In this document: positions 1,349 through 41,047 of the stretch, piece after piece
Layout: every line of letters begins with the position of its first letter
How positions within the stretch are numbered: the first letter of the stretch is position 1
Sequence record: MG852086.2
Origin: Escherichia phage vB_EcoS-Ro145clw
Strand: one strand, 5' to 3'
Length of the DNA stretch: 42,031 bases
The notes under the pieces: generated by a model
What the model saw: only the letters and a program-made list of their open reading frames with translations
Told to the model about the DNA's origin: nothing
The model's database searches: none
Translations under genes and position numbers: made by a program

Positions 1349-1365
1349 GGTTAAGATATAATCGG

Positions 1366-1391
1366 GAGGGACTTCGGTCCCTCTTTTCATT
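1366..1391 (+). terminator. intrinsic terminator after capsid gene
   Basis: Stem GAGGGAC / GTCCCTC with TTCG tetraloop followed by TTTTCATTT. Confidence 0.6.
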
Positions 1392-1407
1392 TACTAAGAG
1401 GTAAATT

Positions 1408-1707
1408 ATGGCTAAGACCGGAAAAGGCTTGCCGCGCAGCCTTCAGAACGTCGATTTCGGCGACTTTGACATCCCAGTAACGCCGGCTACTACCAGCGTA
1501 GTTGGTGGGGTTAAAAAGTCAGCTACTGTGGCTGCACCTGCGGCCATTACCGCTGGCGAAGGAGCGCAGTCTGCTGATGCTCCAACTAAGACAGAGTTCG
1601 ATGCTCTTGTAGCCGAGTACAACAAACTTCGAACTGATGTTACCGCGCTGCGCACTACCGTAGCAAATCTGTTGACTGCGCTTAAAAACGCAGGAACCGT
1701 AAGCTAA
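1408..1707 (+). CDS. hypothetical head-associated protein with C-terminal coiled-coil-like segment
   Basis: 99 aa ORF, SD AAGAGG; Ala/Thr-rich linker then heptad-like C-terminus; function unknown. Confidence 0.45.
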   Translation: MAKTGKGLPRSLQNVDFGDFDIPVTPATTSVVGGVKKSATVAAPAAITAGEGAQSADAPTKTEFDALVAEYNKLRTDVTALRTTVANLLTALKNAGTVS

Positions 1708-1719
1708 AGGAGCTTAAAA

Positions 1720-2070
1720 ATGGTTGATGTAATCAAACGTCGTATTACCGGAGTTTCTGACGATTCTCCTGCCGACGGTCAGGTTGAAATCGACATGGCA
1801 AATATCTCACCAGCATCTTTTTCTACCGCGCTTGCGGCTACTACCGCAGTTACAGCAGGGAATACAATGACTCTTACCGTAGTGGTAACTGGCGGTCTGG
1901 AGCCGTATTCCTACCAGTGGTACAAAGATAACAACGCTATCGCTGGCGCAAACGCTGCTTCCTATGCGAAGGCGTCCACTACTACCGCAGATTCAGGCAC
2001 GTATAAAGTGGTTGTTCACGACGTATATGGTAATATTATCTCCAGTAGCACCATAGCAACTGTATCTTAA
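1720..2070 (+). CDS. Ig-like domain protein (possible capsid decoration or accessory structural protein)
   Basis: 116 aa; SD AAGGAG; C-terminal YQWYKDNNAIAG...DSGTYKVVVHD pattern typical of bacterial Ig-like domains. Confidence 0.55.
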   Translation: MVDVIKRRITGVSDDSPADGQVEIDMANISPASFSTALAATTAVTAGNTMTLTVVVTGGLEPYSYQWYKDNNAIAGANAASYAKASTTTADSGTYKVVVHDVYGNIISSSTIATVS

Positions 2071-2075
2071 TACCG

Positions 2076-2091
2076 CGGCCCTTCGGGGCCG
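2076..2091 (+). other. GC stem with UUCG-type tetraloop, no U-tract (RNA stability or processing element?)
   Basis: CGGCCC TTCG GGGCCG directly after the stop of the 1720..2070 ORF; no T-run follows. Confidence 0.3.
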
Positions 2092-2106
2092 TAATAAGGA
2101 AAGGTC

Positions 2107-2286
2107 ATGGCAGATAATTATGTAATCCGCGAAAAGTACACCCACGTTGATGTTGTTGACGGTCAGGTGACGCCAGTTCGCGGTGTGGTAGAAGAGGATG
2201 AACTGGTAGCGGTTCAACCGGAGAACGAAGAAGCGCGCAACAACGGTGGTGGTGTTAAGCGTCGTCGCCGTAAGTCGGAGGAATAA
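2107..2286 (+). CDS. small hypothetical protein (59 aa), basic C-terminus
   Basis: ATG preceded by AAGGAAAGG; fills the gap between annotated ORFs; below the 60 aa cut-off of the ORF track. Confidence 0.4.
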   Translation: MADNYVIREKYTHVDVVDGQVTPVRGVVEEDELVAVQPENEEARNNGGGVKRRRRKSEE

Positions 2287-2289
2287 TTC

Positions 2290-2802
2290 ATGCCGCTAAT
2301 CGTGGAAGATGGGTCGATAGTACCTGACGCTGACAGTTACGTTAGCCTGGCTGATGCCCGCGCGTTAGCGGCTAATTATGGCTTTGAGCTGCCGGAAGAC
2401 GATACCGCAGCAGAGGTGGCCTTGCGCAACGGCGCTACTTATGTCGGGCTTGCAGAACCGCAGATGTGCGGTCGTCGTGTATCCGCAGAGCAGTCTCTTG
2501 CGTACCCCCGCACCGGCGTTACGTTAAACGGATTCCCTGTAGCGAACAATGTCATTCCGAAGCAGGTAATTCTTGCGCAGGTAATCGCCGCTGTTACGTA
2601 TGGTGTAGGTACGGAAGTGCGAGCTAACTCTGATGGGCGTTCCGTGCAGACTGAGCGCGTAGAAGGCGCAGTGACCGTGACATACTTCAACAACGGCAAC
2701 AGTGGCGCTACGACCGCAATTACCGCCGCGGACGATGCCTTACGCCCGTTACTGTGTGGCGGACTTAACAATGGCTTCTCCTTTAACGTGTACCGGGGTT
2801 AA
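2290..2802 (+). CDS. head-tail connector/adaptor protein (gp6-like, putative)
   Basis: 170 aa; SD GGAGGA; N-terminal SYVSLADARAL...EDD pattern resembles HK97 gp6-type adaptor N-termini; position in head-completion block. Confidence 0.45.
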   Translation: MPLIVEDGSIVPDADSYVSLADARALAANYGFELPEDDTAAEVALRNGATYVGLAEPQMCGRRVSAEQSLAYPRTGVTLNGFPVANNVIPKQVILAQVIAAVTYGVGTEVRANSDGRSVQTERVEGAVTVTYFNNGNSGATTAITAADDALRPLLCGGLNNGFSFNVYRG

Positions 2803-2804
2803 AA

Positions 2805-3419
2805 ATGGCGAAGACTAAAACAGAGATGTTTACCCTTATAGGCGCTAATCTTCCAGATAACACCGACAAACTTATCACCCCCGCAGCATTGCGCGAGGTA
2901 ATGACGCAGATGGCCGACTCGCCTATTTACGCCACTCCGGGTGTTAAAGAGGTAGAAGTTCTCCGTGCCGCGTCAACCGTGGCACAAGCGCCTACCGCAG
3001 TAGATACGGCATTGCAGTTAACTTTCGGCTCCGCTCAGGGGAGTGCATCTGACCCGGTAATGATTAATGCTGCGGGGCTGGTTACGTTCAACACCGCAGG
3101 TAACTACGCCGTTCGCATCAAGTTACAGGCCGGGCGCACCGGGGCCAGCGGTACATCTATCCTGCTATCGCGCATCCTCGTCAACGGCGCTCAATACGGT
3201 TCCCCCGCAGCAACTAAGCTGGTAAGCGCCGACATAACAATTCCTATTGAGTCCCGCGTTGTTATTGGCCCAACCGCAGGCCAGACGTTTGCCGTTCAGA
3301 TTATGCGGGATAGCGCCGGGAGTAACTTCGGCGGCGTATATCCGCAAGCGGCTACGGTAACTGCATGGGGTACAGCACCATCTGCGCTACTGGTTATCTC
3401 GAGACTGGAGGCTGCCTGA
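2805..3419 (+). CDS. hypothetical structural protein
   Basis: 204 aa ORF in the head-tail joining block; no recognisable motif. Confidence 0.45.
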   Translation: MAKTKTEMFTLIGANLPDNTDKLITPAALREVMTQMADSPIYATPGVKEVEVLRAASTVAQAPTAVDTALQLTFGSAQGSASDPVMINAAGLVTFNTAGNYAVRIKLQAGRTGASGTSILLSRILVNGAQYGSPAATKLVSADITIPIESRVVIGPTAGQTFAVQIMRDSAGSNFGGVYPQAATVTAWGTAPSALLVISRLEAA

Positions 3420-3778
3420 TGAGCACCGATTTCAGTAAACGTATGCAAGGCGTAGGTACGCGCCTGCTAACCAAATTCGGTAGCACGGTATCTCTGGTTC
3501 GCGCTGGCTCGAAAGTGTGGGACGAAGTTCTCGGCGAATACGTCTGGTCTGCGGATGAAGTGTTGCCGTTGAAGGCCGTTCCGGTTCCTGTTAACGCAGG
3601 ACTGGTAAACGGTACGACGATTCAGGCAGGTGACATGATCGTTAAGGCTGATTACAGCGTCGTTCCGAAGATGGAAGACAAGGTGCAATTTGGCGGCGAG
3701 CAATGGTCTATCGAAGCCATTGAGAAGAAGATGGTTAATGATGATGTCGTGGCCTACTTTATCCAGGTGAGAAAATGA
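3419..3778 (+). CDS. head closure / head-tail joining protein (putative)
   Basis: Start moved to ATG at 3419 overlapping upstream stop (TGATG); about 119 aa; size and position fit a head-closure protein. Confidence 0.4.
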   Translation: MSTDFSKRMQGVGTRLLTKFGSTVSLVRAGSKVWDEVLGEYVWSADEVLPLKAVPVPVNAGLVNGTTIQAGDMIVKADYSVVPKMEDKVQFGGEQWSIEAIEKKMVNDDVVAYFIQVRK

Positions 3779-4173
3779 CACCATTTGAACAGTCTATTCA
3801 GAATTTTATAAAGAAGGCCAAAAAGAACCCTGAACTGGTGGTTCGCCAGGTCACGATTAAATTATATTCTCAGATTATAATGGCAAGTCCCGTTAAGACG
3901 GGTAGATTCAGGATGAATTGGCAGGTCAGTAATAACAAGCCAGCAACGGGTGTTTTAATAGCAGACGACCCTTCCGGGAGCAGAGCTATAGGTCGGATGA
4001 CAAATTACGTTATATCATCTCCTGAGTGGGAAAATTTCTGTTTTACAAATAATTTGCCATATGCGGAAAGGTTAGAATATGGGTACTCACAACAAGCACC
4101 TCAAGGCATGGTCCGTGTGACTGTCGCCAGATTTCAACGTCTACTCAACGAAGCTGCGGCGAGGGCAGATTGA
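3775..4173 (+). CDS. HK97 gp10-like neck/tail-completion protein
   Basis: 132 aa; ATGA overlap with upstream gene; motifs PVKTGRFRMNW and NLPYAERLEYG resemble the HK97 gp10 family; markedly AT-rich with rare AGA/AGG/ATA codons. Confidence 0.5.
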   Translation: MTPFEQSIQNFIKKAKKNPELVVRQVTIKLYSQIIMASPVKTGRFRMNWQVSNNKPATGVLIADDPSGSRAIGRMTNYVISSPEWENFCFTNNLPYAERLEYGYSQQAPQGMVRVTVARFQRLLNEAAARAD

Positions 4174-4586
4174 TGGGCTACTTTGAGGACTTAACCAAAG
4201 CGTTTGATGTGCCGTTGGTGGCCTTCGGGACCGCAAACGGCATCAGGGTTGCGCTTGAAAATATCGACGCGCCGACGTCAACCGATACGCCGTATCTGGC
4301 GAGTTACATGTTGCTGGCAGATACGGAACAGGCGGATTTGTTCTTCACCGAGCAACGCTCAGGTGTTTATCAGGTCAACATTAACTACGCGTCGGTGAAA
4401 GGTAGCGCGCCAATCAATAAAATGGCAGACTTACTTAACACGGTGTTTAAAGCAGGTAAGTCATTTTCACGTAACGACATCTGCGCCGAGGTTCAATCAG
4501 TTAGCCTGGGGCCGCTGATTGTAGAAAACGGATGGGCCAAAAGACCATTGTCAATTAACTTTATTGCATTCACCAAGAGGCTGTGA
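4173..4586 (+). CDS. tail terminator/completion protein (putative)
   Basis: 137 aa; start ATG 4173 overlapping upstream stop; SD GAGGG; positional call immediately before major tail gene. Confidence 0.4.
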   Translation: MGYFEDLTKAFDVPLVAFGTANGIRVALENIDAPTSTDTPYLASYMLLADTEQADLFFTEQRSGVYQVNINYASVKGSAPINKMADLLNTVFKAGKSFSRNDICAEVQSVSLGPLIVENGWAKRPLSINFIAFTKRL

Positions 4587-4588
4587 AT

Positions 4589-5755
4589 ATGGCTACAACT
4601 CCTTTTAAGGGCGCGAATACCGCGCAATTCTATGTGGCGGAAGTGACCCCGGGCGTAACACCAAGTAACCCGGTATGGTCGCCGTTGCGTAGCACTGGCG
4701 GCGTTCCTGCCGTAACCCGCGATGCGCTGACTTCCAACGAACTGGACGGCAGCCGTGAAACTACATCCATCCGCACTGGCAATAAGCAGGTAAGCGGGGA
4801 GTATGCCATCGAACTTAGCTCTCGTAGTCAGGATGATTTCCTGGCTGGCGCGATGACTTCTACGTGGCAGGATGGGGTAGAGATTACGGGTGCCGAAATT
4901 ACTGTCGCCCCCGCAGGTAAAACATTCACCCGCGCTGCCGGTAGCTTCATTACTGACGGTGTAGAAGTTGGTGACCTTATTGCGTTCACCGACTTAACCG
5001 GCGACAACGCAAAACCGTTTATCGTGACCGCGGTTTCTGCTCTTGTAGTTACGGGTGCGGGCATTCAGCACACGCTGACAGCAGAGACTGTAACCACCGA
5101 CGCTAAAACTGGCGATAAACTGGAAACCGGTAACGCATGTAAGACGTTCTCCATCCTGACATGGTTCAAAGGACAGTGCGGGAACCCTGACGCGTACATG
5201 TTGACCAAAGGCGTGGAAATCTCCGGTTTCACCATTGAACAGGCCGTAAACGCGATGGTGACAGGCAGCTTCCCGTTCATCGGCCTGAGTCAGGAGATTC
5301 TTACCACGCCGCCGTCTGGCTCTGATTTCTCTCAGGTGACGTTCACGGACGAGCCGTTCTCTTCTGTAGATGTGTCTGTGTTCGACGGTTCTACGCCGTT
5401 GCGTTGCGATACTCTCACTATCACCAACGATAACGGTGCTTCCGCGCAGTTCGAACTCGGCAACAGTAGCGTCGCGTTCGTGGAACGGGGGCGCGCAGCT
5501 AACACCTTTTCCATCTCCGGTAAGCTGTACGACATGACGATGATTCAGAAGTTTATCAACGAGCAGCAGGTAGAGATTAACTCTATTCTGGCGGGGGTAA
5601 ACGGGGCTATGTCTTTCAGTTTGAAACGTGCGGAACTTACGGCGGTTACGCCTGAGATTGGCGGACCTGAGTCAATCACCCAGAGCATAGAAGGACAGTC
5701 CACAGGCAATCAATATCAATCTTCTATTGTAATACAGCGTATTAGCTACGCGTAA
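4589..5755 (+). CDS. major tail (tube) protein (putative)
   Basis: 388 aa from ATG 4589 with SD AAGAGG 8 nt upstream; Thr/Ser/Gly-rich; position between completion proteins and chaperones. Confidence 0.55.
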   Translation: MATTPFKGANTAQFYVAEVTPGVTPSNPVWSPLRSTGGVPAVTRDALTSNELDGSRETTSIRTGNKQVSGEYAIELSSRSQDDFLAGAMTSTWQDGVEITGAEITVAPAGKTFTRAAGSFITDGVEVGDLIAFTDLTGDNAKPFIVTAVSALVVTGAGIQHTLTAETVTTDAKTGDKLETGNACKTFSILTWFKGQCGNPDAYMLTKGVEISGFTIEQAVNAMVTGSFPFIGLSQEILTTPPSGSDFSQVTFTDEPFSSVDVSVFDGSTPLRCDTLTITNDNGASAQFELGNSSVAFVERGRAANTFSISGKLYDMTMIQKFINEQQVEINSILAGVNGAMSFSLKRAELTAVTPEIGGPESITQSIEGQSTGNQYQSSIVIQRISYA

Positions 5756-5759
5756 GTAA

Positions 5760-5779
5760 AAGGCCCCGAAAGGGGCCTT
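5760..5779 (-). terminator. GC hairpin AAGGCCCC GAAA GGGGCCTT, terminator oriented for the minus strand
   Basis: Perfect 8 bp stem; A-run on plus strand just before it gives a U-tract on the minus strand after HNH gene 5781..6275. Confidence 0.5.
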
Positions 5780-5780
5780 A

Positions 5781-6275
5781 CTATTTACCGTGGTTCTCGT
5801 GGAACCCCAAATCTCTTTCAGCAACTCTCCTCGCGGCAACTGCATCTAGTATCGTCTTAAAGCACCCGATATGTGTTTTTACGTTATTGTTGAATATCTG
5901 CGCGTACCACAACCTTTCTTTCGCGTTCCAGTAGACTCCGGTTACTCCTGATTTATTATTACGCTGTTTTGACATATTTTTATGGTTTTCCGCATTGGAC
6001 TTTTTAGCTAAGTTAAGCGGTCTATTGTTTATTCGGTCATGGTCTAGATGGTCTATTTGATCTGACGAGGTTAGCTTATTGTTAGGATTGTTTAAGTCCC
6101 AAGCTATACGGTGCGCCGCATGCCATTTACCCCGGAAAAATATCCTTCTATATCCGTCTCGCTGGACGGTACCTGCTTCCTCTCCAGCCTTAGCCCTCCC
6201 GGACCGGGTTACTCTGTTAAATATCCTTCCTGAAATTAAGTCGTATATGAAAAATTCATTCCAATCCATAATCAT
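5781..6275 (-). CDS. HNH homing endonuclease with AP2-type DNA-binding domain
   Basis: 164 aa; HNH core GKWHAAHRIAWDL...IDHLDHDRINNRPLNL; AP2-like SGVTGVYWNAKERLWYAQI; AT-rich; SD AGGAG. Confidence 0.8.
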   Translation of the reverse strand: MIMDWNEFFIYDLISGRIFNRVTRSGRAKAGEEAGTVQRDGYRRIFFRGKWHAAHRIAWDLNNPNNKLTSSDQIDHLDHDRINNRPLNLAKKSNAENHKNMSKQRNNKSGVTGVYWNAKERLWYAQIFNNNVKTHIGCFKTILDAVAARRVAERDLGFHENHGK

Positions 6276-6288
6276 CTCCTATTGTGAT

Positions 6289-6311
6289 AAGGCCCCGAAA
6301 GGGGCCTTTTT
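6289..6311 (+). terminator. second copy of the identical hairpin AAGGCCCCGAAAGGGGCCTT followed by T5 (plus-oriented terminator)
   Basis: 20/20 identity with 5760..5779; followed by TTTTT on the plus strand. Confidence 0.5.
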
Positions 6312-6312
6312 C

Positions 6313-6543
6313 TTACTCATCAATATTACTCCTGTACTCCCGTAACTTCTCCAGACTCTCAATTGCTTCCGCTAAGTCGGTTCCTGTGTCCTTGTGCCCC
6401 CGCAAGCCCATACACAATAGCTTCTTCAATGCGTGCTGTAACGCCGGGTCGCGGATGTCGAAGGCACGTAGCACGTCGTAAACGTCTACTGTCATAGTGC
6501 TGCCGTGAGTGTTTGTCATTGTGCGGTTGTATTTTGAAGTCAT
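6313..6543 (-). CDS. hypothetical protein (76 aa)
   Basis: SD GGGGAG upstream on the minus strand; preferred over the overlapping 6359..6550 frame. Confidence 0.4.
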   Translation of the reverse strand: MTSKYNRTMTNTHGSTMTVDVYDVLRAFDIRDPALQHALKKLLCMGLRGHKDTGTDLAEAIESLEKLREYRSNIDE

Positions 6544-6556
6544 AAATCAATCTCCC

Positions 6557-7027
6557 CTACTCATGGTTTTCATGAAAACCGTATTTACTCTCGGCGGCTT
6601 TACGCGCGGCAACCGCTACATCAAAATCGTCGTAAAGCCCTAAATGCACTTGTTTGTAGTTAACTTTTATAAACGCGCGCCACTTACCCGCGGCTTTGTG
6701 GAAACTTACACCTGTAGCCCCGGATTTATTTATCTTTCTCATAGTTTTATTTTTACTGTCCCCTGTATTGTCGGTGGCGCGTAGATTTTCTATTCTATTG
6801 TCTAGCCTGTTATGGTTTATGTGGTCTATTTGAGTTTTCCTGTCTAAGTCGCATTTATTATAAAGACACCATGCTATGCGGTGGACATACACTGTTTTAC
6901 CACCCATACCGCAGCACAGATAGCCTCTTACACCAACCGTACCAACCTCAGCACCAGTAGATATCCTGGTAACCTGCCCCGTCTCAGGGCAGTATTTAAA
7001 TTGTTTTGAAACATCAAGATACTTCAT
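6557..7027 (-). CDS. HNH homing endonuclease with AP2-type DNA-binding domain (paralog of 5781..6275)
   Basis: 156 aa; HNH core HRIAWCLYN...IDHINHNRLDNRIENL; AP2-like SGATGVSFHKAAGKWRAFI; shares C-terminal GFHENH with the other HNH. Confidence 0.8.
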   Translation of the reverse strand: MKYLDVSKQFKYCPETGQVTRISTGAEVGTVGVRGYLCCGMGGKTVYVHRIAWCLYNKCDLDRKTQIDHINHNRLDNRIENLRATDNTGDSKNKTMRKINKSGATGVSFHKAAGKWRAFIKVNYKQVHLGLYDDFDVAVAARKAAESKYGFHENHE

Positions 7028-8154
7028 CTTAGCATCTCCGGTGAGATTGAAAGCCTACCTACTTCCCCGAACTCTGAACTATAGGTTATGACATTAGCGG
7101 ACCTCTTAGACATCCACCCGCCGCGAGAAGCATATGCATCTTTCGCCGCGAGAGTGCGATGTTGTTCCACTACCATATTCCTACTTTCTACAATCTTTTG
7201 ATGGTGGAGATGCCCGACATGTGCGTAACTGTACTCGCTTTCGCCAAATGCTTTTCTGAACTTAGCTATCATAATGGGTTCGACCACCTCAAACCGGCAT
7301 TTATGCCCGTGTGTAAAGAACAGTGTCGTTTTACCGTGTTGCACCATCTTGTAAACATCCGGCGACGTATCGACGAACACACGCGGCTCATTGTCGTACA
7401 GCGTACTGAACATCTCAGCCAACCAAATCATTCCGCTTTCGTCGTGGTTCCCTTGCACGATAAGCAAGCGAACATTTTTATGCTTAACCAGCGCCATACC
7501 AACAACACGGCGTACCATACGAATCATGTAGCGGACTAGTTTCTGGTAGCGCGTGTCCGCATCAAGAACATGACCGCTCGCTGGCGTAACGGCATCCAGA
7601 CTATCGAAGTGTGCGAAGTCCCCGAGCAGATTAATGACTCCTGTTCCTGCATCTGGCGCTTTCTGGAATGCCGCATCGAACCATCGGGAGAACAGGTCTT
7701 CAGCAATCTTCATATCCCAGTCGTCGCCGCTCTCGTCGGCCCAGGCCAGCATGCCGAGATGGAAATCAGATACCGTGTAAAGATTGAGTAGTTTGTCGTC
7801 ACGTTTGGCTCGAGTCGCTTTAACAGGCGCAACTGGGGTAATCTCTGACTTCATGCCTTCAACCACGGCTTTCATCAACTCAACCTGACGTTCGGCATCG
7901 GTGTCGGTCTTAACCCATTGCAACTTAGTGTTGCCGAACTCGTCTACCAGTGACGACGTTCCTTTAATCTTGTAGCCGTCTGGCACAAGGTGACTAACAT
8001 CACGACCATGACCTACGCCTTTCTTCGCCAGCTTCGCTTTACGGATACGAATAACGCGGTCTGAGATGCCGTATTTACGGGCAATGTCGATATTCTTCAT
8101 CCCGACGTTCAATTCTTCCTGTAACTGTTCGTCGGTTATTTTCTTCTGGGCCAT
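7024..8154 (-). CDS. N-terminal HTH domain fused to calcineurin-like metallophosphoesterase
   Basis: 376 aa; HTH-like IDIARKYGISDRVIRIRKAKL; MPP motifs SDFHLG, GDFAHFD, QGNHDES, THGH, HVGHLHH in canonical order; SD GAGGAAG. Confidence 0.65.
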   Translation of the reverse strand: MAQKKITDEQLQEELNVGMKNIDIARKYGISDRVIRIRKAKLAKKGVGHGRDVSHLVPDGYKIKGTSSLVDEFGNTKLQWVKTDTDAERQVELMKAVVEGMKSEITPVAPVKATRAKRDDKLLNLYTVSDFHLGMLAWADESGDDWDMKIAEDLFSRWFDAAFQKAPDAGTGVINLLGDFAHFDSLDAVTPASGHVLDADTRYQKLVRYMIRMVRRVVGMALVKHKNVRLLIVQGNHDESGMIWLAEMFSTLYDNEPRVFVDTSPDVYKMVQHGKTTLFFTHGHKCRFEVVEPIMIAKFRKAFGESEYSYAHVGHLHHQKIVESRNMVVEQHRTLAAKDAYASRGGWMSKRSANVITYSSEFGEVGRLSISPEMLR

Positions 8155-8192
8155 GCTTACTTCCTCGTGTTTAGGATTTGTCCTATACTAGC

Positions 8193-8384
8193 TCACTTCT
8201 CGTTAACATTCGAGTTGCACGCCCAGATTAAAATAAATACCCACGGCAGCAGAACCCAACCAAGAAACAGGTTAGCCATGAATATCGCCAACTTCGCTTT
8301 ATGGTTACGGAAATATGCAACCAGGAAAGGCGCGAAATAAGCGAGCAGTGCAAACAGAATTAAGGAAACTGGTAAACTTGACAT
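8193..8384 (-). CDS. small membrane protein, superinfection-immunity (Imm)-like family (putative)
   Basis: 63 aa from the second ATG (SD AAGGGG); two hydrophobic segments; YFAPFLVAYFRNHK...NLFLGWVLLPW resembles the Imm-type superinfection immunity family as remembered. Confidence 0.45.
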   Translation of the reverse strand: MSSLPVSLILFALLAYFAPFLVAYFRNHKAKLAIFMANLFLGWVLLPWVFILIWACNSNVNEK

Positions 8385-8414
8385 TTTAAACCCCTTCATT
8401 GTTGGTGTAAGTGA

Positions 8415-8443
8415 ATAGTACCCTATTATATTGGGGTGTGCAA
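8415..8443 (-). promoter_or_regulatory. sigma70-like promoter TTGCAC-N17-TACTAT with embedded AATAG-N4-CTATT inverted repeat (site A)
   Basis: Minus strand reads TTGCACACCCCAATATAATAGGGTACTATTCACTT; nearly identical to sites at 29385, 30614 and 40699. Confidence 0.5.
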
Positions 8444-8551
8444 GTAATGTGATAGAATAATTTTGCGCCTAGTGTCGCACACGAAAAGCGGGTGGTTCCC
8501 GTCTGGCGCATTTATCGATAACCTGTAACCTCTTAACCAAAGGATTAAAGA

Positions 8552-8971
8552 ATGAAACTTTCTGATTTTTATTTCGAAGAGAAAGCACTGGTAGGCAAGA
8601 AAATGCCGATTCTGCTGCCGAATGGCGAAGACTCCGGCGAGTGGCTTAATGTTGTAAGCCCTGATGCGGATGCCGCCGTTAAAGCGGGGCGTGCTTTCAT
8701 TATCGCGTACCGTCGCGGACTGGCGCGTTTTGAAGAACTGGAAAAAACCGCTAAAGCCTCCGGCGACTATACAGAATATAACCTGGCGATTAATGAACTG
8801 GCGGAAGACCTCAACCGGCAACTCGCGGCTGAAGTCGTAAACGGCTGGAGCTTCGACGACGAGCCTTTCTCTAAGGAAGCGTTTAACAAATTGCTCGACC
8901 AGTTCAAAGGGCTTGGAACCCAGGTAGCCGCGTTCCATAACGCTGAGCGCAAAGCATTACAGGAAAAGTAG
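8552..8971 (+). CDS. tail assembly chaperone (gpG-like, putative)
   Basis: 139 aa acidic ORF with SD AAGGA immediately upstream of the tape-measure gene; followed by a -1 frame overlapping ORF. Confidence 0.5.
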   Translation: MKLSDFYFEEKALVGKKMPILLPNGEDSGEWLNVVSPDADAAVKAGRAFIIAYRRGLARFEELEKTAKASGDYTEYNLAINELAEDLNRQLAAEVVNGWSFDDEPFSKEAFNKLLDQFKGLGTQVAAFHNAERKALQEK

Positions 8972-9336
8972 ACGCGCTGTACAGGTTCGCCACCTACGAG
9001 TTTGTGGATAAGCATAAAATCAGAGAGTTTGATTCTATAGCTGACGGACATGAACAGGCGCTTATCGCGATGGGTGTAATCGATAAGAAAAAACGTGCAG
9101 CGCGACGGGGTGGGCCAGAATGTCCGCCCCTTTTCATATCCACCTTTGAGACGTATTGCGACATTAAGTTTACGCGACACGTGCGCGAGGACGCTGTAGT
9201 ATTGTTTGCAAGAGAATCCGTTACGTGGCAAGACCTGAAAGCCTATCTCGACGTTACACAAAAACAGCTTAGCCTGTTCGAGATAGACATTATCATGGGC
9301 TTAGAAGCAATCTTTGAAGGTAGAAACCATGGCTGA
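8947..9336 (+). CDS. -1 frame extension ORF (gpT-like; candidate G-T frameshift product)
   Basis: Frame -1 relative to 8552..8971 is open from 8947 to TGA at 9334..9336; overlaps the last 8 codons of the chaperone gene; candidate slip region AGGAAAAG at 8961..8968; independent GTG at 9004 also possible. Confidence 0.4.
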   Translation, partial: AQSITGKVDALYRFATYEFVDKHKIREFDSIADGHEQALIAMGVIDKKKRAARRGGPECPPLFISTFETYCDIKFTRHVREDAVVLFARESVTWQDLKAYLDVTQKQLSLFEIDIIMGLEAIFEGRNHG

Positions 9337-11599
9337 TATCGCTAGCTTGATAGTACGAGTATCCGCAACCGGCGTCGATAAAGTCACATCACAACTGAAC
9401 GGGCTTACTAAAGCCGCAGGCGCTGCGGCTGCCGCCGTTGTCAGCCTGGAAACCGCTAAGCAGGTGTTCAGTGCGCTGGTGGACTCCCAGCGAAACTTCG
9501 ATAAGCTGAACTCCGGCCTCATCACAATGACCGGGAGTGCTGAGAACGCGGCTAAGGCTTTCAGCGTCCTGCAACAGTTCGCGAAAGAAACCCCGTACGG
9601 CCTCAACCAGGCGGTGGAAGGCTTTACTAAACTTGTAGCCCTCGGCCTGAACCCCAGCAAAGAGGCGTTAATCTCCTACGGCAACACCGCCGCTGCGATG
9701 GGTAAAGACCTTAATCAGATGATTGAGGCCGTGGCGGACGCCAGTACATTTGAATTTGAGCGACTGAAAGAGTTCGGTATTAAGTCTTCCCAACAGGCAG
9801 ATACCGTTTCGTTCACGTTCCGCGGCGTAACGACCACAGTTAAGAAGAACTCCGAAGAAATTCAGAAATACCTGCTAAACATCGGTAACACTGATTTCGC
9901 CGGGGCGATGGAAACGCGTTCGAAAACCCTTGACGGGCAGTTATCTAGCCTCGCGGACTCCTTTGACGGCCTTGTACTTGCGGTGGCGCAATCAGGTTTC
10001 GGCGACGCCGTAGGTGAGCAAGCTGCGACAGCGGAAGATGCCATCACGGCCCTAACCGATGCCATCGCGTCTAATGAGATAGCAGCCACGCTCCAGGATT
10101 GGGTGACACTGTTCAATGAATCGTTCAAGTTTATTTCTGACGCTTTGAACGATCTGGCATACGACACCGAGGACAAATCCGTGGATATGTCCGACTCGCT
10201 GGGGACTATCCCGGACGCTATTCGTGAGTGGTTGCCTGACATTCAGCAGACATTCCACGAGGTTATTGCGTGGTTCCAGCGCATTGACGATTACGCGGTC
10301 GCGTTAGGCCAGACCCTCGCCGACGTGTTCGACCCGAGCAAAACGGCAGCGCTAACATTTAAAAACCTGACCGCAGAGGCCGACGCCGCATACGCCGCCA
10401 GCATAAAACGCGCAGAGGCCGAATCACAGGCTATCACCAACAGGTCTAAGCAGCGTAAGAAAGAAATTGAGGAACAGCGCAAGCAGTATGACGAGCGCAA
10501 GAAGCAAGAAATTGACTTAGCCAGCCTTGTTAATAAAAAGAGCGGAAATGGTGGAACCGGAAATACCAACGACAAAGACGCGAAAGCCGCCGCTAAGAAA
10601 GCGGAGCAATTGCGTAAACAGGCCCAGGATTATCTCGACACTTTGGCCCGTCAGAACAACGACGAATTAAAGGCTATTGACGCACAGGAACAGCAGAAAC
10701 TGGCTAAGGCAAAAGAGTTCTACAACCAGGGCGCGTTGGCTCTGAAAGAATACGAGCAAGCAAAAACGGCTATCGTCCTCGAAGCCGGACAAGCACGGCA
10801 GGAAGAGCTGGATAAGCGAGAGAAAGAACGGCAGGAAAAGCAGCAGAAAGGTGAAGACTTCATGGCTCAGATTATGGGTCAGAATGCCGCCGAGCTTGAG
10901 CTTCTGGAAATTCAGGAACAACAAAAACTGGACGTTGCGGACCGATACCGCGAACAGAACCTTATTAATGAGGAGCAGTACCAGGCTGCGGTTAATGCCA
11001 TAAATGACCAATATGCTTTGAAGCGCGCCAACGCTACAGGTAACGCTTTCGGGATGATGGCGGATAACATGAAGGCCTCACTAGGGGAGGCGTCGTCCGC
11101 GTACAAAGCATTCGCTATTGCTCAGGCCACAATCGCCACATACACCTCCGCTATTGAGGCTTATAAATCAGCGTCCGCTATCCCCGTGATTGGCTGGGTT
11201 ATGGGGCCAATTGCCGCCGCCGCCGCCGTAGCCGCCGGTATGGCTAACATAGGTAAGATTCGTTCGGCTCGTGAACAGGGTGGTCAATTATCCGCGGGCC
11301 AGATGTCCACCATCGCTGAACGCGGTAAACCGGAGGTTATCATGCCTGCGGGGGCATCGCGTGTGCGCACCGCGCAGCAGATGAAAGAGATTATGGGGCA
11401 AAACGGCGGAAACTCCGGCGGTGACAGCGTGACAATTGTCAACAACACCACCGGGCGAGTTGATTCTGCGGTAACAGAACGTGATGACGAAGGGCGTTTA
11501 CGTATTATAATCAGTGAAACAGTATCGGCGGCGTTACAGGACAGCAACAGCGCAATCTCTAAGTCACGCCGTGCTACACGAAACCAGCCGGGGTATTAA
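9329..11599 (+). CDS. tail tape measure protein
   Basis: 756 aa from ATG 9329 (SD GAAGG); long coiled-coil middle with repeated EQQKL segments; C-terminal hydrophobic Ala/Gly-rich segment; follows chaperone pair. Confidence 0.8.
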   Translation: MADIASLIVRVSATGVDKVTSQLNGLTKAAGAAAAAVVSLETAKQVFSALVDSQRNFDKLNSGLITMTGSAENAAKAFSVLQQFAKETPYGLNQAVEGFTKLVALGLNPSKEALISYGNTAAAMGKDLNQMIEAVADASTFEFERLKEFGIKSSQQADTVSFTFRGVTTTVKKNSEEIQKYLLNIGNTDFAGAMETRSKTLDGQLSSLADSFDGLVLAVAQSGFGDAVGEQAATAEDAITALTDAIASNEIAATLQDWVTLFNESFKFISDALNDLAYDTEDKSVDMSDSLGTIPDAIREWLPDIQQTFHEVIAWFQRIDDYAVALGQTLADVFDPSKTAALTFKNLTAEADAAYAASIKRAEAESQAITNRSKQRKKEIEEQRKQYDERKKQEIDLASLVNKKSGNGGTGNTNDKDAKAAAKKAEQLRKQAQDYLDTLARQNNDELKAIDAQEQQKLAKAKEFYNQGALALKEYEQAKTAIVLEAGQARQEELDKREKERQEKQQKGEDFMAQIMGQNAAELELLEIQEQQKLDVADRYREQNLINEEQYQAAVNAINDQYALKRANATGNAFGMMADNMKASLGEASSAYKAFAIAQATIATYTSAIEAYKSASAIPVIGWVMGPIAAAAAVAAGMANIGKIRSAREQGGQLSAGQMSTIAERGKPEVIMPAGASRVRTAQQMKEIMGQNGGNSGGDSVTIVNNTTGRVDSAVTERDDEGRLRIIISETVSAALQDSNSAISKSRRATRNQPGY

Positions 11600-12609: not shown

Positions 12610-12971
12610 ACATTAATTCTTATACTGGTCTTCCGTATGATTTTCGCCGCCGTAATTGCTGGCACCATGTGTGTAACGTTCGCGCGGACGCGGGGCTCCC
12701 CACGCCCGAGTTTAACGTCGCTTCGCCAACACAGATTAATGATGCCTTTGAAGAAGGCCATAAAGACACTAAAGGCCTCGTACACGTAGAAACTCCGCAA
12801 AACTTCGATGTCGTTCTGATGGCAACGCGACACAGAAACCGTGTAATCTGGCACGCTGGCGTATATTATGGTGGTATGGTCAGTCATTGCGAGCTAGCTA
12901 GTCGCCAGGTACGGTTAGACCGACTGGAAGACTTGCGCGAAACTTATGCGGAGATAGAATTTTGGCGCTGA
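12606..12971 (+). CDS. small NlpC/P60-like cysteine peptidase-domain tail protein (gpK-like, putative)
   Basis: 121 aa; ATGA overlap; conserved Cys (RRRNCWHHV) and downstream His (VIWHAGVYY, MVSHCE) spaced like NlpC/P60 catalytic residues. Confidence 0.45.
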   Translation: MNINSYTGLPYDFRRRNCWHHVCNVRADAGLPTPEFNVASPTQINDAFEEGHKDTKGLVHVETPQNFDVVLMATRHRNRVIWHAGVYYGGMVSHCELASRQVRLDRLEDLRETYAEIEFWR

Positions 12972-15517
12972 TATTACACTACACCCGTAACGAAGACGGT
13001 ACTTTCGACCGCAAACGGTACAACGTACCGCCGATGGAATACGTCGTTGCTAACATCCCTGACGGGGTGCCGGTACGTATTTACCGGGGCGAGATTGGCG
13101 AGGATACGGAAGTAACGGAAGATTTCGAAGCGCTGAAAGAAGACGACGTATTCCATATTATCGAAGGTGCTGGTGGCGGTGGCGGTTTTCTCGGAAAACT
13201 GCTTGACCCATTGGGTGTGCTTAAGTTTATCACTAAACTGATTTCCCCGTCGCAGAAAACGCCTAAAACTAGTTTAGCTAACCAGCAGGCGGAGTCGCCA
13301 AACAACAACCTGACGGACCGAAACAATAAACCTCGCCCGTATGAGCGGTCGTATGATATTTGCGGCAGGGTACAGACTATCCCTAATGACCTCATGACTA
13401 CCTATAAAATATTCGATGAATCCGGCCGAATTATCGAGTATGGATACTACGACGCCGGTCGAGGTTACCTGGATATCAAAGCAGAAGACATTACTGACGG
13501 CGATACTAAAGTACAGGAGATTACAGGTACATCTGTCGCGGTGTATGCGCCGTTTACATCGCCTAACAATACAAATACTCCTCAGCTTCTGGTGGGGGAA
13601 CCTATCAATCAGAATCTTTATATAACTATCGCTTCTAATGAAGTAGACGGAGCCGTTCTTAAAGCCCGTAACGATATAAGGGTTAACCCTAGCGACACGG
13701 GCCGTGTGAGATATGACTCTGCTACAAAAATTGGATACCTGTATGATGGCACGGGGGATTCTGGCTTCGCGGAAATATTATCTGTTGGCGATACCGCGTC
13801 GTTCAATAACTTTGACGTTCCGGACGTAACAAATACCAACGGCAACTTTCGTGTTCTTTATGTCGATAACTTCGAGCTGCGGGTCGACACCGGCGGCGCG
13901 TCTAACTGGGCTGCTTTAGGTTCAACCACCTATTCACTTTCCCCGAGAAGTGACACGTGGGTGGGCCCTGTGAATACGTATGAAAGAACATTAACCGACT
14001 GGACCACCTTAAACCGCCTGGAAGTTGAACGAGTAGTTGCTAACATTGCCGCCGCGAATGGCATGTACAAGGACAACGGCAGTAAATTGCGCACCGCTGT
14101 AACTGTAGAGCTTCAATATCAGCTACTAGATGAATCCGGGGCACCGTACGGAAGCATTTACTCGAAACAGGCCACTATATCCGGGCGGTCCGCAGATTAC
14201 ACCGGGGTCACCATTTACGCCGACCTGCCCGTGCGGTCGAAAGTCAGGGTACGCGCCCGGCGTGTTACCAACCTGGACCTCGATTTCGAGGGCACCGTGG
14301 TAGACGAGGTTTCCTACATCAACCTTTACGGGCAGGTCCGCGACACTACGCCGCATTACGGCAACCGTACTACTGTACACTCTGCACGTAAGCAGACGCC
14401 GCGGGCCGCAGAGATTAAGCAGCCGCAGCTACGTATGGTCGCGACGGAGATGGTGTACAAATACCTCGGCAACGGCGTATTTGACGCGGTTATGACACCT
14501 AATACCCAAGCCGTTCAGTCGTTAATACGCCTGGCGCGGGACCCAGTAGTAGGAAACCTCAATCTCACCACGGCTAACATGGATAAGTTGTTGGCTACGC
14601 AAGCAGAGATTGAAAATTATTTCGGAAATGCTGAGGCTGGGCAGTTCTGCTACACATTCGATGATTACAAAACGACTATGCAGGACATCATCAGCACAAT
14701 AGCTGATGCTATTTTCTGCACGCCATATCGTAAAGGGCAAGACATATTACTGGATTTCGAGCGCCCTCGTATGGGGCCGGAGATGGTATTCACCCACCGC
14801 AGTAAAACAACGGCATCCGAGAGGTGGACTAGGACATTCAACGACGCTCAGGTATACGATAGTCTTAAGTTCTCCTACATCGACCCAGATACCAACGTAA
14901 AAGAGACTATTAGCATTCCAGCCGAAGGTGGTGTTAATACCGAAACGTATGACTCCAAGGGTATACGTAATTATCGCCAGGCGTACTGGGCGGCGTACCG
15001 CCGCTACCAGAAAAACCTGTTGAAGAAGGTAACGGTATCATTCACGGCGACAGAAGAAGGGATTTTTGCAATGCCTGGGCGTGCGGTAAGTGTGGTAAAA
15101 GGTTCGCGTATGGCTCCACAAGACGGCTATGTAATCGCCGTTAACGGGCTTACGCTTACTCTTTCTCGGCCGGTCGCGTTTACTCCTGGGGATGACCACT
15201 CACTGATTCTTAAGAAGCGAGACGGGGGAGTTCAAAGTGTTGCCGTTGTGCCTGGAAGCCACGACCGTGAAGTGGTTATGCTATCCGCGCCGCAGGAGGC
15301 AATTTACACGGGGAATAGCGCACTAAAAACTGAGTTTTCATTCGGCAACGAAGCAAGGCATAATGCTCAGATGATTCTTGTTTCTACAGTTGACCCCGGA
15401 GATGACAGAACAGTTAAGATTACCGGGATTAACTATGAAGCAGATTTCTATAAATACGACGGCGTCGCGCCTTTCGGTCGCGGTTTCTCCGACGGATTCA
15501 GCAACGGTTTTAGTTAA
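12962..15517 (+). CDS. tail tip / host-specificity protein with gpI-like N-terminal region
   Basis: 851 aa, TTG start with SD GGAGA; N-terminus (VRIYRGEIG...GAGGGGGFLGKLL...) resembles lambda gpI-type assembly domain; large C-terminal body; position before tailspike. Confidence 0.55.
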   Translation: MALILHYTRNEDGTFDRKRYNVPPMEYVVANIPDGVPVRIYRGEIGEDTEVTEDFEALKEDDVFHIIEGAGGGGGFLGKLLDPLGVLKFITKLISPSQKTPKTSLANQQAESPNNNLTDRNNKPRPYERSYDICGRVQTIPNDLMTTYKIFDESGRIIEYGYYDAGRGYLDIKAEDITDGDTKVQEITGTSVAVYAPFTSPNNTNTPQLLVGEPINQNLYITIASNEVDGAVLKARNDIRVNPSDTGRVRYDSATKIGYLYDGTGDSGFAEILSVGDTASFNNFDVPDVTNTNGNFRVLYVDNFELRVDTGGASNWAALGSTTYSLSPRSDTWVGPVNTYERTLTDWTTLNRLEVERVVANIAAANGMYKDNGSKLRTAVTVELQYQLLDESGAPYGSIYSKQATISGRSADYTGVTIYADLPVRSKVRVRARRVTNLDLDFEGTVVDEVSYINLYGQVRDTTPHYGNRTTVHSARKQTPRAAEIKQPQLRMVATEMVYKYLGNGVFDAVMTPNTQAVQSLIRLARDPVVGNLNLTTANMDKLLATQAEIENYFGNAEAGQFCYTFDDYKTTMQDIISTIADAIFCTPYRKGQDILLDFERPRMGPEMVFTHRSKTTASERWTRTFNDAQVYDSLKFSYIDPDTNVKETISIPAEGGVNTETYDSKGIRNYRQAYWAAYRRYQKNLLKKVTVSFTATEEGIFAMPGRAVSVVKGSRMAPQDGYVIAVNGLTLTLSRPVAFTPGDDHSLILKKRDGGVQSVAVVPGSHDREVVMLSAPQEAIYTGNSALKTEFSFGNEARHNAQMILVSTVDPGDDRTVKITGINYEADFYKYDGVAPFGRGFSDGFSNGFS

Positions 15518-17625: not shown

Positions 17626-17646
17626 AAGGCCCCAACGGGGCCTTTT
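17626..17646 (+). terminator. intrinsic terminator after tailspike
   Basis: AAGGCCCC AACG GGGGCCTT followed by TTTT; variant of the 5760/6289 hairpin. Confidence 0.55.
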
Positions 17647-25976: not shown

Positions 25977-25990
25977 AATATGGTACTATT
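25977..25990 (+). promoter_or_regulatory. operator-like AATAT-GGTA-CTATT overlapping a TGgTACTAT extended -10 (site G) upstream of XRE gene
   Basis: One mismatch from the AATAG-N4-CTATT consensus; weak -35; about 30 nt upstream of ATG 26021. Confidence 0.35.
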
Positions 25991-26020
25991 CACATATCAA
26001 CTGACTAAGGAGTGATTAAC

Positions 26021-26236
26021 ATGCAACCATCTGAACTAGGCATCCGTGTAGAACAGCGCCGTAAAGAACTCGGCATCTCCCAGCGCCGTCTGGCTGTCCT
26101 GACGGGAGTTTCTCAGGGCGCAATTAATCAGCTTGCACTCGGAGTAACTCAGGACGTCCGCCCGGCAACGCTGTTTAAACTGGCGGAAGTGCTGGAAGTA
26201 GACGCCAAGTGGCTGGCGTTAGGTGAAGGGGCTTAA
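26021..26236 (+). CDS. XRE-family (Cro/CI-type) HTH transcriptional regulator
   Basis: 71 aa from ATG 26021 with SD AAGGAG; ELGISQRRLAVLTGVSQGAINQLALG is a textbook HTH_XRE motif. Confidence 0.75.
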   Translation: MQPSELGIRVEQRRKELGISQRRLAVLTGVSQGAINQLALGVTQDVRPATLFKLAEVLEVDAKWLALGEGA

Positions 26237-29384: not shown

Positions 29385-29413
29385 TTGCATACCCCAATAT
29401 AATAGGCTACTAT
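29385..29413 (+). promoter_or_regulatory. sigma70-like promoter TTGCAT-N17-TACTAT with AATAG-GCTA-CTATT (site C)
   Basis: TTGCATACCCCAATATAATAGGCTACTATTCACTT; near-identical to site A; about 30 nt upstream of ATG 29448. Confidence 0.5.
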
Positions 29414-30613: not shown

Positions 30614-30642
30614 TTGCACACTTGAATAGAATAGGCTACTAT
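30614..30642 (+). promoter_or_regulatory. sigma70-like promoter TTGCAC-N17-TACTAT with AATAG-GCTA-CTATT (site D)
   Basis: TTGCACACTTGAATAGAATAGGCTACTATTCATTT; leader then GAGAGGAGAGACAGAG before ATG 30673. Confidence 0.5.
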
Positions 30643-40423: not shown

Positions 40424-40450
40424 AAGGCCCCATTATGGGGCCTTAGTTTT
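40424..40450. terminator. bidirectional terminator between convergent genes
   Basis: AAGGCCCC ATTAT GGGGCCTT with T-run on the plus side and A-rich on the other; variant of the recurring hairpin. Confidence 0.55.
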
Positions 40451-40673
40451 AAACTTCCACGTCTATCACCAAATCATCAGGCATGGTTATGACTATTTTA
40501 TCGTTTTCATAGAACGGGCTAAGAGGCTCATTTTCAGGCTGCAAACGTAAAGTTAGCTTTTTATCACCAAAATAATCTATGTAACGAACCCAGTACCACT
40601 CGTCGAATACCTGTACCTTTTCTCCGGGGCGTACATCTCTAGCCTTCTTTTGATTCGTAAATCTAATCGGCAT
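40449..40673 (-). CDS. hypothetical protein (74 aa), minus-strand single-gene island
   Basis: SD AGGAGG upstream; own promoter (site B) and terminator. Confidence 0.45.
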   Translation of the reverse strand: MPIRFTNQKKARDVRPGEKVQVFDEWYWVRYIDYFGDKKLTLRLQPENEPLSPFYENDKIVITMPDDLVIDVEV

Positions 40674-40698
40674 AAATACCTCCTGTTTAAGTTAACTG

Positions 40699-40727
40699 AA
40701 TAGTACCCTACTATATTGGGGTGTGCA
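40699..40727 (-). promoter_or_regulatory. sigma70-like promoter TTGCAC-N17-TACTAT with AGTAG-GGTA-CTATT (site B)
   Basis: Minus strand reads TTGCACACCCCAATATAGTAGGGTACTATTCAG; near-identical to site A. Confidence 0.5.
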
Positions 40728-40794
40728 AACTATTTGTTTATGTATTCCAGTTATTCCGCTCAATTGTAAATGTTGGAATAAACTATTCGAATAG

Positions 40795-40823
40795 TTGACT
40801 TTTCACTGAAAATGTGCTAAGCT
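40795..40823 (+). promoter_or_regulatory. sigma70-like promoter TTGACT-N17-TAAGCT with TG extended -10, preceded by palindrome CTATTCGAATAG
   Basis: TTGACTTTTCACTGAAAATGTGCTAAGCT; perfect 12 bp palindrome at 40783..40794. Confidence 0.45.
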
Positions 40824-40829
40824 CCACCT

Positions 40830-41026: not shown

Positions 41027-41047
41027 ACTTATCGAGAAAGGGGAAAC

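Follow-up and report, generated by a model that had tools for sequence, protein, structure and literature searches.

A predicted accessory module of minus-strand genes between two late units of Escherichia phage vB_EcoS-Ro145clw and its relatives in the Guernseyvirinae

Between the tail-tube gene and the tail assembly chaperone gene of Escherichia phage vB_EcoS-Ro145clw (sequence record MG852086.2), five open reading frames (ORFs) run on the minus strand, opposite to the late genes on either side. The stretch of DNA analysed here, called the window, is 42,031 nt long, and all coordinates are window positions unless another genome is named. It is a rotated copy of the genome of vB_EcoS-Ro145c2YLVW (MH051334/NC_073322; Kagunavirus, Guernseyvirinae), to which it is 99.9% identical overall and, by megablast, 100% identical over positions 5000-9500. 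In GenBank the five products are named as hypothetical proteins gp38-gp42. A first-pass annotation of the window had described the same five genes, which the ORF list of the window confirms, and had taken them for an island that breaks a usually contiguous late operon. The genes of this locus (island 1), its putative promoter and its terminators are described below together with their counterparts in relatives; protein functions and the activities of promoters and terminators are named as predicted from sequence. The coordinates of the features are collected in Table 1.

The first gene of the minus-strand unit encodes a small two-helix membrane protein whose earlier designation as Imm-like is borne out, as it matches Imm_superinfect (PF14373) at 48.3 bits against a cut-off of 27.9, and also phrog_1039 ('immunity to superinfection'); its homologue in Salmonella phage S100 matches PF14373 at 56.7 bits. 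The second and largest gene had been described as a fusion of a helix-turn-helix (HTH) domain with a metallophosphoesterase. The metallophosphoesterase part stands: the 376-aa protein matches PHROG 704 (1.7e-164), and its five metallophosphoesterase motifs (D130xH, G178DxxH, G235NHD, H282GH and G314HxH) are intact and are invariant in six homologues with identities down to 39%, although its Pfam scores lie just under the cut-offs (Metallophos_2, 25.6 versus 27; Metallophos, 19.4 versus 21.5). The N-terminal HTH is tentative, with a GerE score of 17.9 against 23.5 bits, and a protein 94% identical to the 376-aa protein carries the NCBI name 'winged helix-turn-helix domain-containing'. All of the 120 matches listed by a large protein search are at least 94% identical, and homologues of the metallophosphoesterase occur in 2038 phage records. 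Searches of the PDB with the single sequence and with a profile returned no metallophosphoesterase chain at E<=1 for the phosphoesterase domain, nor did they detect homology to the solved structures of Mre11/SbcD, the nuclease type named in annotations.

Two of the remaining genes, HNH1 and HNH2, encode paralogous putative homing endonucleases (38% identity, in an alignment that covers the AP2-like region of HNH1). Of their earlier description as HNH-AP2 endonucleases, the HNH_3 part (PF13392, cut-off 24.8) holds for both proteins, with 38.6 bits in HNH1 and 26.5 in HNH2, and both match phrog_99 (1e-54 and 2e-49, respectively); the AP2 part (PF00847, cut-off 33.3) does not, with 19.7 bits in HNH1 and no match in HNH2. 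The start codon of HNH1 overlaps the stop codon of the metallophosphoesterase gene, and HNH2 has no space for a promoter of its own. Between them stands a 76-aa gene that in phage 26, Bas74, pink and other relatives immediately follows the metallophosphoesterase gene. Its product matches the C-terminal part of phrog_2452. As the PHROG matches fall on C-terminal parts of longer families, the ORF was considered as a possible leftover of the P-loop ATPase gene of phage K1G, an idea rejected because there is no BLASTP similarity and the gene is intact and conserved in many relatives. No island protein had a match in an NCBIfam search, and a PADLOC search of the island proteins gave weak 'homing endonuclease' matches only.

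Table 1. Features of islands 1 and 2 and of the related promoters, hairpins and leader (window positions unless another genome is named).
Feature	Position	Strand	Remarks
Imm-like two-helix membrane protein	8193..8384	-	63 aa from RBS-preceded ATG at 8384 (= GenBank start); ORF reaches 8399 (68 aa)
HTH-metallophosphoesterase, conserved main cargo	7024..8154	-	376 aa; phrog_704
HNH1, putative free-standing HNH_3/AP2-like homing endonuclease	6557..7027	-	156 aa; domain and PHROG matches
Conserved 76-aa gene, function unassigned	6313..6543	-	kept in relatives
HNH2, putative paralogous homing endonuclease	5781..6269	-	GenBank start 6269; ORF to 6275 = 164 aa
Tail assembly chaperone, first gene of restarted tail unit	8552..8971	+	PF08748
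Putative promoter-operator cassette, island 1	8408..8443	-	-35 TTGCAC 8443-8438; -10 TACTAT 8420-8415; palindrome 8414-8427
HNH1-linked allele (co-conversion tract), 3' end of metallophosphoesterase gene	7024..7300	-	carriers versus non-carriers
Terminator hairpin copy B	6289..6308		AAGGCCCCGAAAGGGGCCTT; T-tract on plus strand, none on minus
Terminator hairpin copy A	5760..5779		minus-strand T-rich tail TTTTACTT; weak plus-strand tail
AAGGCCCC...GGGGCCTT hairpins, window	5760, 6289, 17626, 40424
AAGGCCCC...GGGGCCTT hairpins, K1G	12303, 24829
AAGGCCCC...GGGGCCTT hairpins, pink	9605, 20049, 31079
Candidate extended -10 promoter	8450..8458	+	TG-a-TAGAAT
Structured 5' leader resembling int-alpA RNA	8462..8526	+	core 8465-8509: outer stem around two hairpins
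Palindromes in cassettes	8414, 29401, 30630, 40699
Palindromes in replication-block promoters	20086, 23662, 25932	-	TTGAC(A/G)-N17-TATAGT, palindrome in spacer; strong promoters (predicted)
Cassette-like promoter, 1-mismatch palindrome, then 71-aa Cro/CI-type HTH gene (ATG 26022; 26022-26236)	25977..26236	+	HTH_3 47.2 bits
Island 2, same design	40424..40728	-	cassette 40693-40728; 74-aa gene 40449-40673; hairpin 40424-40444

The layout of the locus and how far it is conserved, the families of repeats and the mobility of HNH1 were established from the sequence and from comparisons with relatives, namely the Kagunavirus phages K1G, GZMU_E2010, phage 26, Bas74, KMB36 and HSE2 and the Jerseyvirus Salmonella phages pink and S100, and with a tblastn census of 33 complete loci. 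In all eight of these phages (six Kagunavirus and two Jerseyvirus) a metallophosphoesterase gene and a gene for a small envelope protein stand on the minus strand in the gap between the tail-tube and chaperone genes, and the metallophosphoesterase gene occupies the same locus in 32 of the 33 loci of the census. Homologous phages, the eight named and 32 of the 33 loci, carry Imm, metallophosphoesterase and promoter as a conserved core at the exact locus. This is the outcome that the first-pass annotation had itself named as refuting, and the recent interruption of a usually contiguous late operon, as first proposed, is not borne out. What varies is the 3' cargo, in at least 13 architectures across the census. 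The minimal form, found in phage 26, Bas74 and pink, consists of Imm (or another small envelope gene), the metallophosphoesterase gene and the 76-aa gene, and in K1G-type phages the place of the 76-aa gene is taken by genes for a polynucleotide kinase/phosphatase and for a P-loop protein. The first gene is an envelope protein gene in every relative examined, with a signal-peptide protein in pink and a YebO-like protein in a distant relative (L021) as alternatives to Imm. In S100 (L101) a Rha/ANT-type regulator gene (1740-2411) occupies the slot next to the tail-tube gene, which is the HNH2 slot of the window phage, so that this terminator-proximal slot takes unrelated cargo.

The distant relative L021 (IMGVR_UViG_2162886012_000023), whose tail tube is 66% identical, is the only census locus without the metallophosphoesterase. 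Its junction (1400-1900) holds one minus-strand gene, for the YebO-like single-pass membrane protein, a bidirectional terminator and the same leader RNA as the other phages, and may represent a minimal or ancestral form of the locus. As the core stands at the locus in every Kagunavirus and Jerseyvirus examined, and even L021 has a minus-strand gene, terminator and leader there, the break in the late operon is ancestral to the subfamily. In T1-like and Vibrio phages a homologous metallophosphoesterase lies among early or replication genes, so that a position inside the tail block characterises the Guernseyvirinae. The reverse-strand genes already appear in published genome papers on relatives, and in the one on fBC-Eco01 the structural genes are said to form 'three clusters'. 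Island 1 is best read, with a probability of about 75%, as a subfamily-wide accessory module of the Guernseyvirinae, a self-contained minus-strand unit between two plus-strand late units. It is an already sequenced, standard feature of a well-sampled subfamily, built from known kinds of parts, in which, judging from the comparisons, only the two HNH genes are recent insertions. The earlier reading, by which all five genes were recently gained by insertion into the once-contiguous late tail operon of the window phage, could draw on a dip of the GC content to 0.45 at 6-7 kb, on the two HNH insertions, on the position of the metallophosphoesterase homologue outside the tail block in T1-like and Vibrio phages, and on its lack at this locus in L021. 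The constancy of Imm, metallophosphoesterase and promoter in the two genera, however, and the minus-strand membrane-protein gene, bidirectional terminator and leader at the L021 junction, make it improbable, and for the core it is largely refuted already.

The HNH genes are the part of island 1 for which gain can be followed. Relative to phage 26 and Bas74, HNH1 forms an exact insertion of 480 bp where the stop of the metallophosphoesterase gene overlaps the start of the 76-aa gene, and it is 97-100% identical across genera (versus S100). The adjoining 3' end of the metallophosphoesterase gene forms an allele linked to HNH1, which is 96-99% identical in the carriers S100 and HSE2 and 64-88% identical in the non-carriers pink, K1G, phage 26 and KMB36, a difference also visible at the protein level. 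Beyond this flank of ~270 bp, identity with S100 falls to 60-88%, whereas phages lacking HNH1 reach 90-97% through most of the remaining gene. As judged from these alignments, the pattern is the expected footprint of homing with co-conversion, and same-site presence and absence together with the co-converted flank qualify HNH1 as a putative free-standing homing endonuclease gene. HNH2 is likewise present in some relatives and absent from others, with no clear co-conversion tract resolved. The combination of HNH1 with the 76-aa gene is found in many E. coli and Salmonella phages; that of HNH2 with the 76-aa gene is found elsewhere in KMB36 and Kagunavirus 536P11 only; and both HNH genes occur together in the window phage only, among 50,697 records.

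HNH2 also bears on how the unit might be terminated. A plus-strand terminator had been called between the tail-tube gene and the downstream tail genes, and this hairpin, with its plus-strand T-tract, is present (copy B). An identical hairpin that the first-pass annotation missed (copy A) stands on the other side of HNH2, where phage 26 and K1G have one ancestral hairpin in place of the two, and HNH2 appears to have inserted at the terminator and duplicated it. An intrinsic-terminator scan passed copy B on the plus strand and the hairpin of island 2 (40444-40424) on the minus strand, and gave a partial T-tract on either strand for copy A. From the split of the T-tracts, with that of B on the plus strand and that of A on the minus strand, island transcripts would be expected to read past B into HNH2 and stop at A, and tail-tube transcripts to pass A and stop at B, antisense to HNH2. 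The same hairpin, AAGGCCCC-N3-5-GGGGCCTT, is found at every convergent junction in three genomes (the window, K1G and pink), a placement that marks it as the putative general bidirectional terminator of the phage. One copy (17626-17644) lies at the convergent junction of the last tail-fibre gene with the minus-strand replication block. The late region is parted by these terminators into at least three units, with the islands in the gaps between units, and both islands lie between such a terminator and a divergent promoter region. The antisense transcription through late genes that had been predicted is antisense by position only, since the unit overlaps no late ORF and has bidirectional terminators at its bounds.

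On the other side of the island, the downstream tail genes had been expected to need either a promoter of their own or read-through past the terminator, and they do appear to have the former. The 108 nt from the island promoter to the chaperone ATG are more conserved than the surrounding genes. Within them, a hexamer like a -10 element ends exactly 6 nt before a conserved stem in Kagunavirus, in Jerseyvirus and in L021 (38 distinct upstream sequences), in the form TG-n-TAGAAT in Kagunavirus, TG-n-TATTCT in Jerseyvirus and TAAAAT in L021. The TG is fixed, as is the hexamer apart from these lineage-specific forms, and n may be a, c, t or g. This extended -10 promoter, which would stand back-to-back with that of the island, is the probable restart point for the distal tail genes. 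Another explanation is that the island is mainly a transcriptional device, in which convergent, head-on transcription delays or insulates the expression of the tail genes and the cargo is incidental. Position, orientation, promoter and terminators are conserved and much of the cargo is freely swapped, a minus-strand gene is kept at the junction even in L021, and the two promoters lie within ~40 bp of each other, all as such a device would have it. Bidirectional terminators nevertheless confine each unit and no late ORF is overlapped, the metallophosphoesterase is strongly conserved with its catalytic motifs intact, and the constant envelope protein in first place argues that the products are under selection. 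A mainly transcriptional role is accordingly unlikely, and the reading of island 1 as an accessory module is preferred.

The promoter of island 1 had been described as a copy of the one that heads two early plus-strand operons, and the shared promoter type is confirmed for these operons of small genes. The arrangement TTGCAC-N17-TACTAT has four matches in the window where 0.17 are expected, at 8415-8443 (minus), 29385-29413 (plus), 30614-30642 (plus) and 40700-40728 (minus). The four copies do not differ in -35, -10 or 17-nt spacing, and the conservation extends over ~36-45 nt, through the spacer and ~10 nt downstream. The cassette of island 1 stands at the same position in K1G, GZMU_E2010, phage 26 and Bas74. 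It agrees with the sigma-70 consensus at 7 of 12 positions, with the ideal 17-nt spacing, and is not listed by a generic consensus scan; with a match of only 7/12, it is put forward as a predicted promoter. Each cassette overlaps a 14-bp palindrome, AATAG-N4-CTATT, which with at most one mismatch has 10 matches in the window against 1.0 expected. The palindrome overlaps about eight promoters, namely those of the four cassettes, three in the replication block and one before a Cro-type HTH gene. The 71-aa product of the latter is a candidate for the operator-binding regulator on account of its domain; its gene is oriented against those on either side. The palindrome pattern recurs in K1G and pink with a variable N4, as expected for an operator. 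Since one palindrome is common to island, early-type and replication promoters, the unit is probably co-regulated with non-structural genes by one dimeric DNA-binding protein, and the island is probably transcribed by the host RNA polymerase together with early and replication genes. In the fBC-Eco01 paper, seven PHIRE repeats with the consensus tgAATAGTa-ccTATTat-T, which is the reverse complement of the palindrome element, were called 'phage promoter' and ascribed to a phage RNA polymerase. That the cassette is such a promoter for a phage-encoded polymerase, or else a recombination or mobility signal of small gene cassettes, agrees with its modest sigma-70 match, with its finding by PHIRE and with the variable gene slots flanked by cassette and AAGGCCCC hairpin, but is very improbable, as no RNA polymerase gene is annotated in the window genome, K1G or pink, all copies face downstream genes at ribosome-binding-site distance, the replication-block members are near-consensus (TTGACA-N17-TATAGT), and the -35, -10 and spacing do not vary.

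Expression data from a relative fit co-regulation of the island with early and replication genes. In RNA sequencing (RNA-seq) of the Kagunavirus K1B4 (PMC12645636), the Imm gene groups with the DNA polymerase and methylase genes and not with the structural genes. With phage reads of at most 8.9%, and time points up to 120 min against a latent period of 30 min, these data are too coarse to separate early from late expression. Several points weigh against the reading of island 1 as a self-contained, co-regulated unit. The same experiment (PMC12645636) was of low multiplicity of infection and unsynchronised, and the class that contains Imm is labelled 'late'. The sigma-70 match of the cassette is modest, and the generic scan picked ATCACA-N17-TATAAT inside it instead. 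Promoter and terminator activity of the island in the window phage is deduced wholly from sequence, and the strand asymmetry of hairpins A and B comes from their T-tracts alone. The palindrome could be a structural part of the promoter instead of an operator, and the TAGAAT/TATTCT element could be a regulator half-site instead of a -10. The transcriptional predictions made for the locus are, on the whole, reasonable and have comparative support.

The transcript of the distal tail genes would begin with a structured leader, conserved in Kagunavirus, in Jerseyvirus and in L021, which lacks the metallophosphoesterase. Its stems show compensatory changes (GCGCC/GGCGC to GCGTC/GACGC; GUGU/ACAC to CGGU/ACCG), and on the plus strand, the only one on which its G-U pairs work, base pairing holds in 194 of 196 cells. 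Its top match in Rfam, for the region and for the whole window, is RF02996 (int-alpA), at 31.7 bits (E 0.008 over the 42-kb window). The leader aligns with the full model (positions 1-71) and shares CUAG, GAAAAGCGGG and CCCG(C/U)CUGG with it. Because its scores (window, 31.7; L021, 27.5; pink, 26.7 bits) lie below the gathering score of 35.8, the element is called int-alpA-like and is not filed as a member of the family. Canonical int-alpA RNAs from bacterial genomes score 52-75 bits and lie just 3' of a P4-type integrase, near alpA, C4/CI RNA and a P4-alpha-like primase, a context verified in two loci (L075 and L084). The latter, from Gulbenkiania mobilis (968-7985), is a P4-like element with the order integrase, canonical int-alpA RNA, AlpA, KilA-N protein, C4/CI antisense RNA and Toprim-DUF927 primase, and is a tidy reference context for the family. 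A blastn search of 5,426 E. coli genomes with the 81-nt leader element found nothing, and a literature search for a function of int-alpA RNA found nothing. One speculative extension, to which we would give long odds, is that the back-to-back promoters (8.41-8.46 kb) form a switch: a phage HTH protein bound to AATAG-N4-CTATT would shut the island and about seven other non-late promoters, while the extended -10 transcript would carry at its 5' end a diverged but genuine member of the int-alpA class, controlling expression of the chaperone, tape-measure and fibre genes. If so, a phage late operon would be the first functional setting for an orphan class of RNAs otherwise recorded in P4-like satellites only, which would suggest that the satellites either copy this phage machinery or are read by it.

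In the working model proposed, host RNA polymerase would start at the island cassette, under a dimeric protein that binds the overlapping palindrome and would co-regulate island 1, the small-gene operons, island 2, the replication-block promoters and the promoter of the Cro-type HTH gene. The transcript would encode the Imm-type membrane protein, the HTH-metallophosphoesterase and lineage-specific cargo, which in the window phage consists of the 76-aa gene, HNH1 (presumably inserted at the junction of metallophosphoesterase and 76-aa gene) and HNH2 (presumably inserted at the terminator, with duplication of the hairpin). Most minus-strand transcripts would run through hairpin B, where that strand lacks a U-tract, and would end at hairpin A; those of the tail tube would leak past A and end at B. 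The late genes would thus form one unit from the head genes through the tail tube and, beyond the island, another with the chaperone, tape-measure and fibre genes, restarted from the extended -10 promoter and led by the int-alpA-like RNA. With this module, the picture shifts from a foreign insertion to a fixed accessory module with swap slots, and the hypothetical proteins gp38-gp42 gain sensible names. The locus is an example of virulent siphoviruses placing genes of exclusion and nucleic-acid metabolism between late operons, and of homing endonucleases reshaping an accessory module, which here seems to have turned one bidirectional terminator into a pair of one-way halves. A single family of promoters that bear the palindrome may link accessory, early and replication genes. 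Kagunaviruses are part of the BASEL collection and are used as engineering chassis, which gives practical value to a map of likely promoters, terminators and dispensable slots. The palindrome promoter family and the structured leader are the parts most worth attention; of all these items, only the int-alpA-like leader that heads the distal tail operon could raise a question that is new.

The second, single-gene island with the same promoter type also exists, with coordinates amended as in Table 1 (promoter hexamers at 40700-40728). Its gene is shared with ZCEC5 only; K1G has nothing in this slot, and other phages have different genes there. Upstream of the spanin genes, next to island 2, lies a noncoding stretch of 320 nt (40729-41047, plus strand) with, in order, operator-like repeats (GTATTCC/TTATTCC, GGAATAA and TATTCGAATA), TTGACT-N17-(TGc)TAAGCT, a conserved leader and an intrinsic terminator (41004-41023) just before the ribosome-binding site. 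The leader has a GUAA-capped hairpin that covaries in Salmonella phage pink. By its motifs, the stretch is reminiscent of a late promoter whose leader is terminated; Rfam has no match in 40729-41047. TTATTCC was also considered as a genome-wide motif and dismissed, as it is not enriched (7 versus ~5 expected) and clusters locally at 40.74-40.79 kb only. In the second tail-chaperone frame, upstream of the tape-measure gene, a strong terminator-like hairpin (9107-9130, plus strand; GGGGTGGGCC...GTCCGCCCC then TTTTCATATC) could be an attenuator or be tied to the chaperone frameshift. Relative to NC_073322 the window has 31 mismatches overall and lacks one of the 114-bp repeat units of the central tail-fibre gene (12962-15517, plus strand; repeat near 13213-13285). 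This tail-fibre ORF is continuous in the window (851 aa) and split into gp49 and gp50 in NC_073322.

The closest known counterpart of island 1 is the module of K1G (ORF18-21) and of SETP3/Jersey-type Salmonella phages, which agrees in locus, orientation, Imm and metallophosphoesterase genes, promoter cassette and terminator hairpin. In K1G the Imm and metallophosphoesterase genes have ~90% nucleotide identity to those of the window and the cassette is identical; the difference lies in its polynucleotide kinase/phosphatase and P-loop protein, against HNH1, the 76-aa gene and HNH2 in the window phage. The Imm-like protein is comparable to T4 Imm in its domain, scored above threshold, in its form as a small membrane protein with two helices and in its predicted non-late promoter, but it is likened to Imm by its sequence, and in some relatives its slot holds the signal-peptide or YebO-like protein. 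The HNH genes resemble the free-standing seg/mob endonucleases of T-even phages, and HNH-AP2 endonucleases, in their intergenic insertion within an operon, at an identical site in relatives, with an identity of HNH1 far above background and its co-converted flank in the neighbouring gene; they differ in that AP2 stays below the Pfam threshold, HNH2 stands behind a hairpin without its own promoter, and homing is here a reading of alignments. The leader has the three-helix layout and conserved unpaired bases of int-alpA RNA, with lower scores, shorter hairpins and no U-run, and its place is the 5' end of a predicted transcript of tail genes; the phages that have it are virulent, and neither an integrase nor alpA lies close by. 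The morons of lambdoid phages, in the concept of Hendrix and Juhala, are promoter-gene-terminator units between late genes. Both islands resemble them in having a predicted promoter and terminator of their own (cassette and AAGGCCCC hairpin), in lying between structural genes, in their accessory or exclusion-type cargo, and in the presence/absence variation of island 2 and of the 3' slots of island 1. They differ from morons in that the window phage is virulent and not a prophage, that island 1 has a core fixed throughout the subfamily, and that the island promoters are not independent but belong to a phage-wide, palindrome-bearing family.

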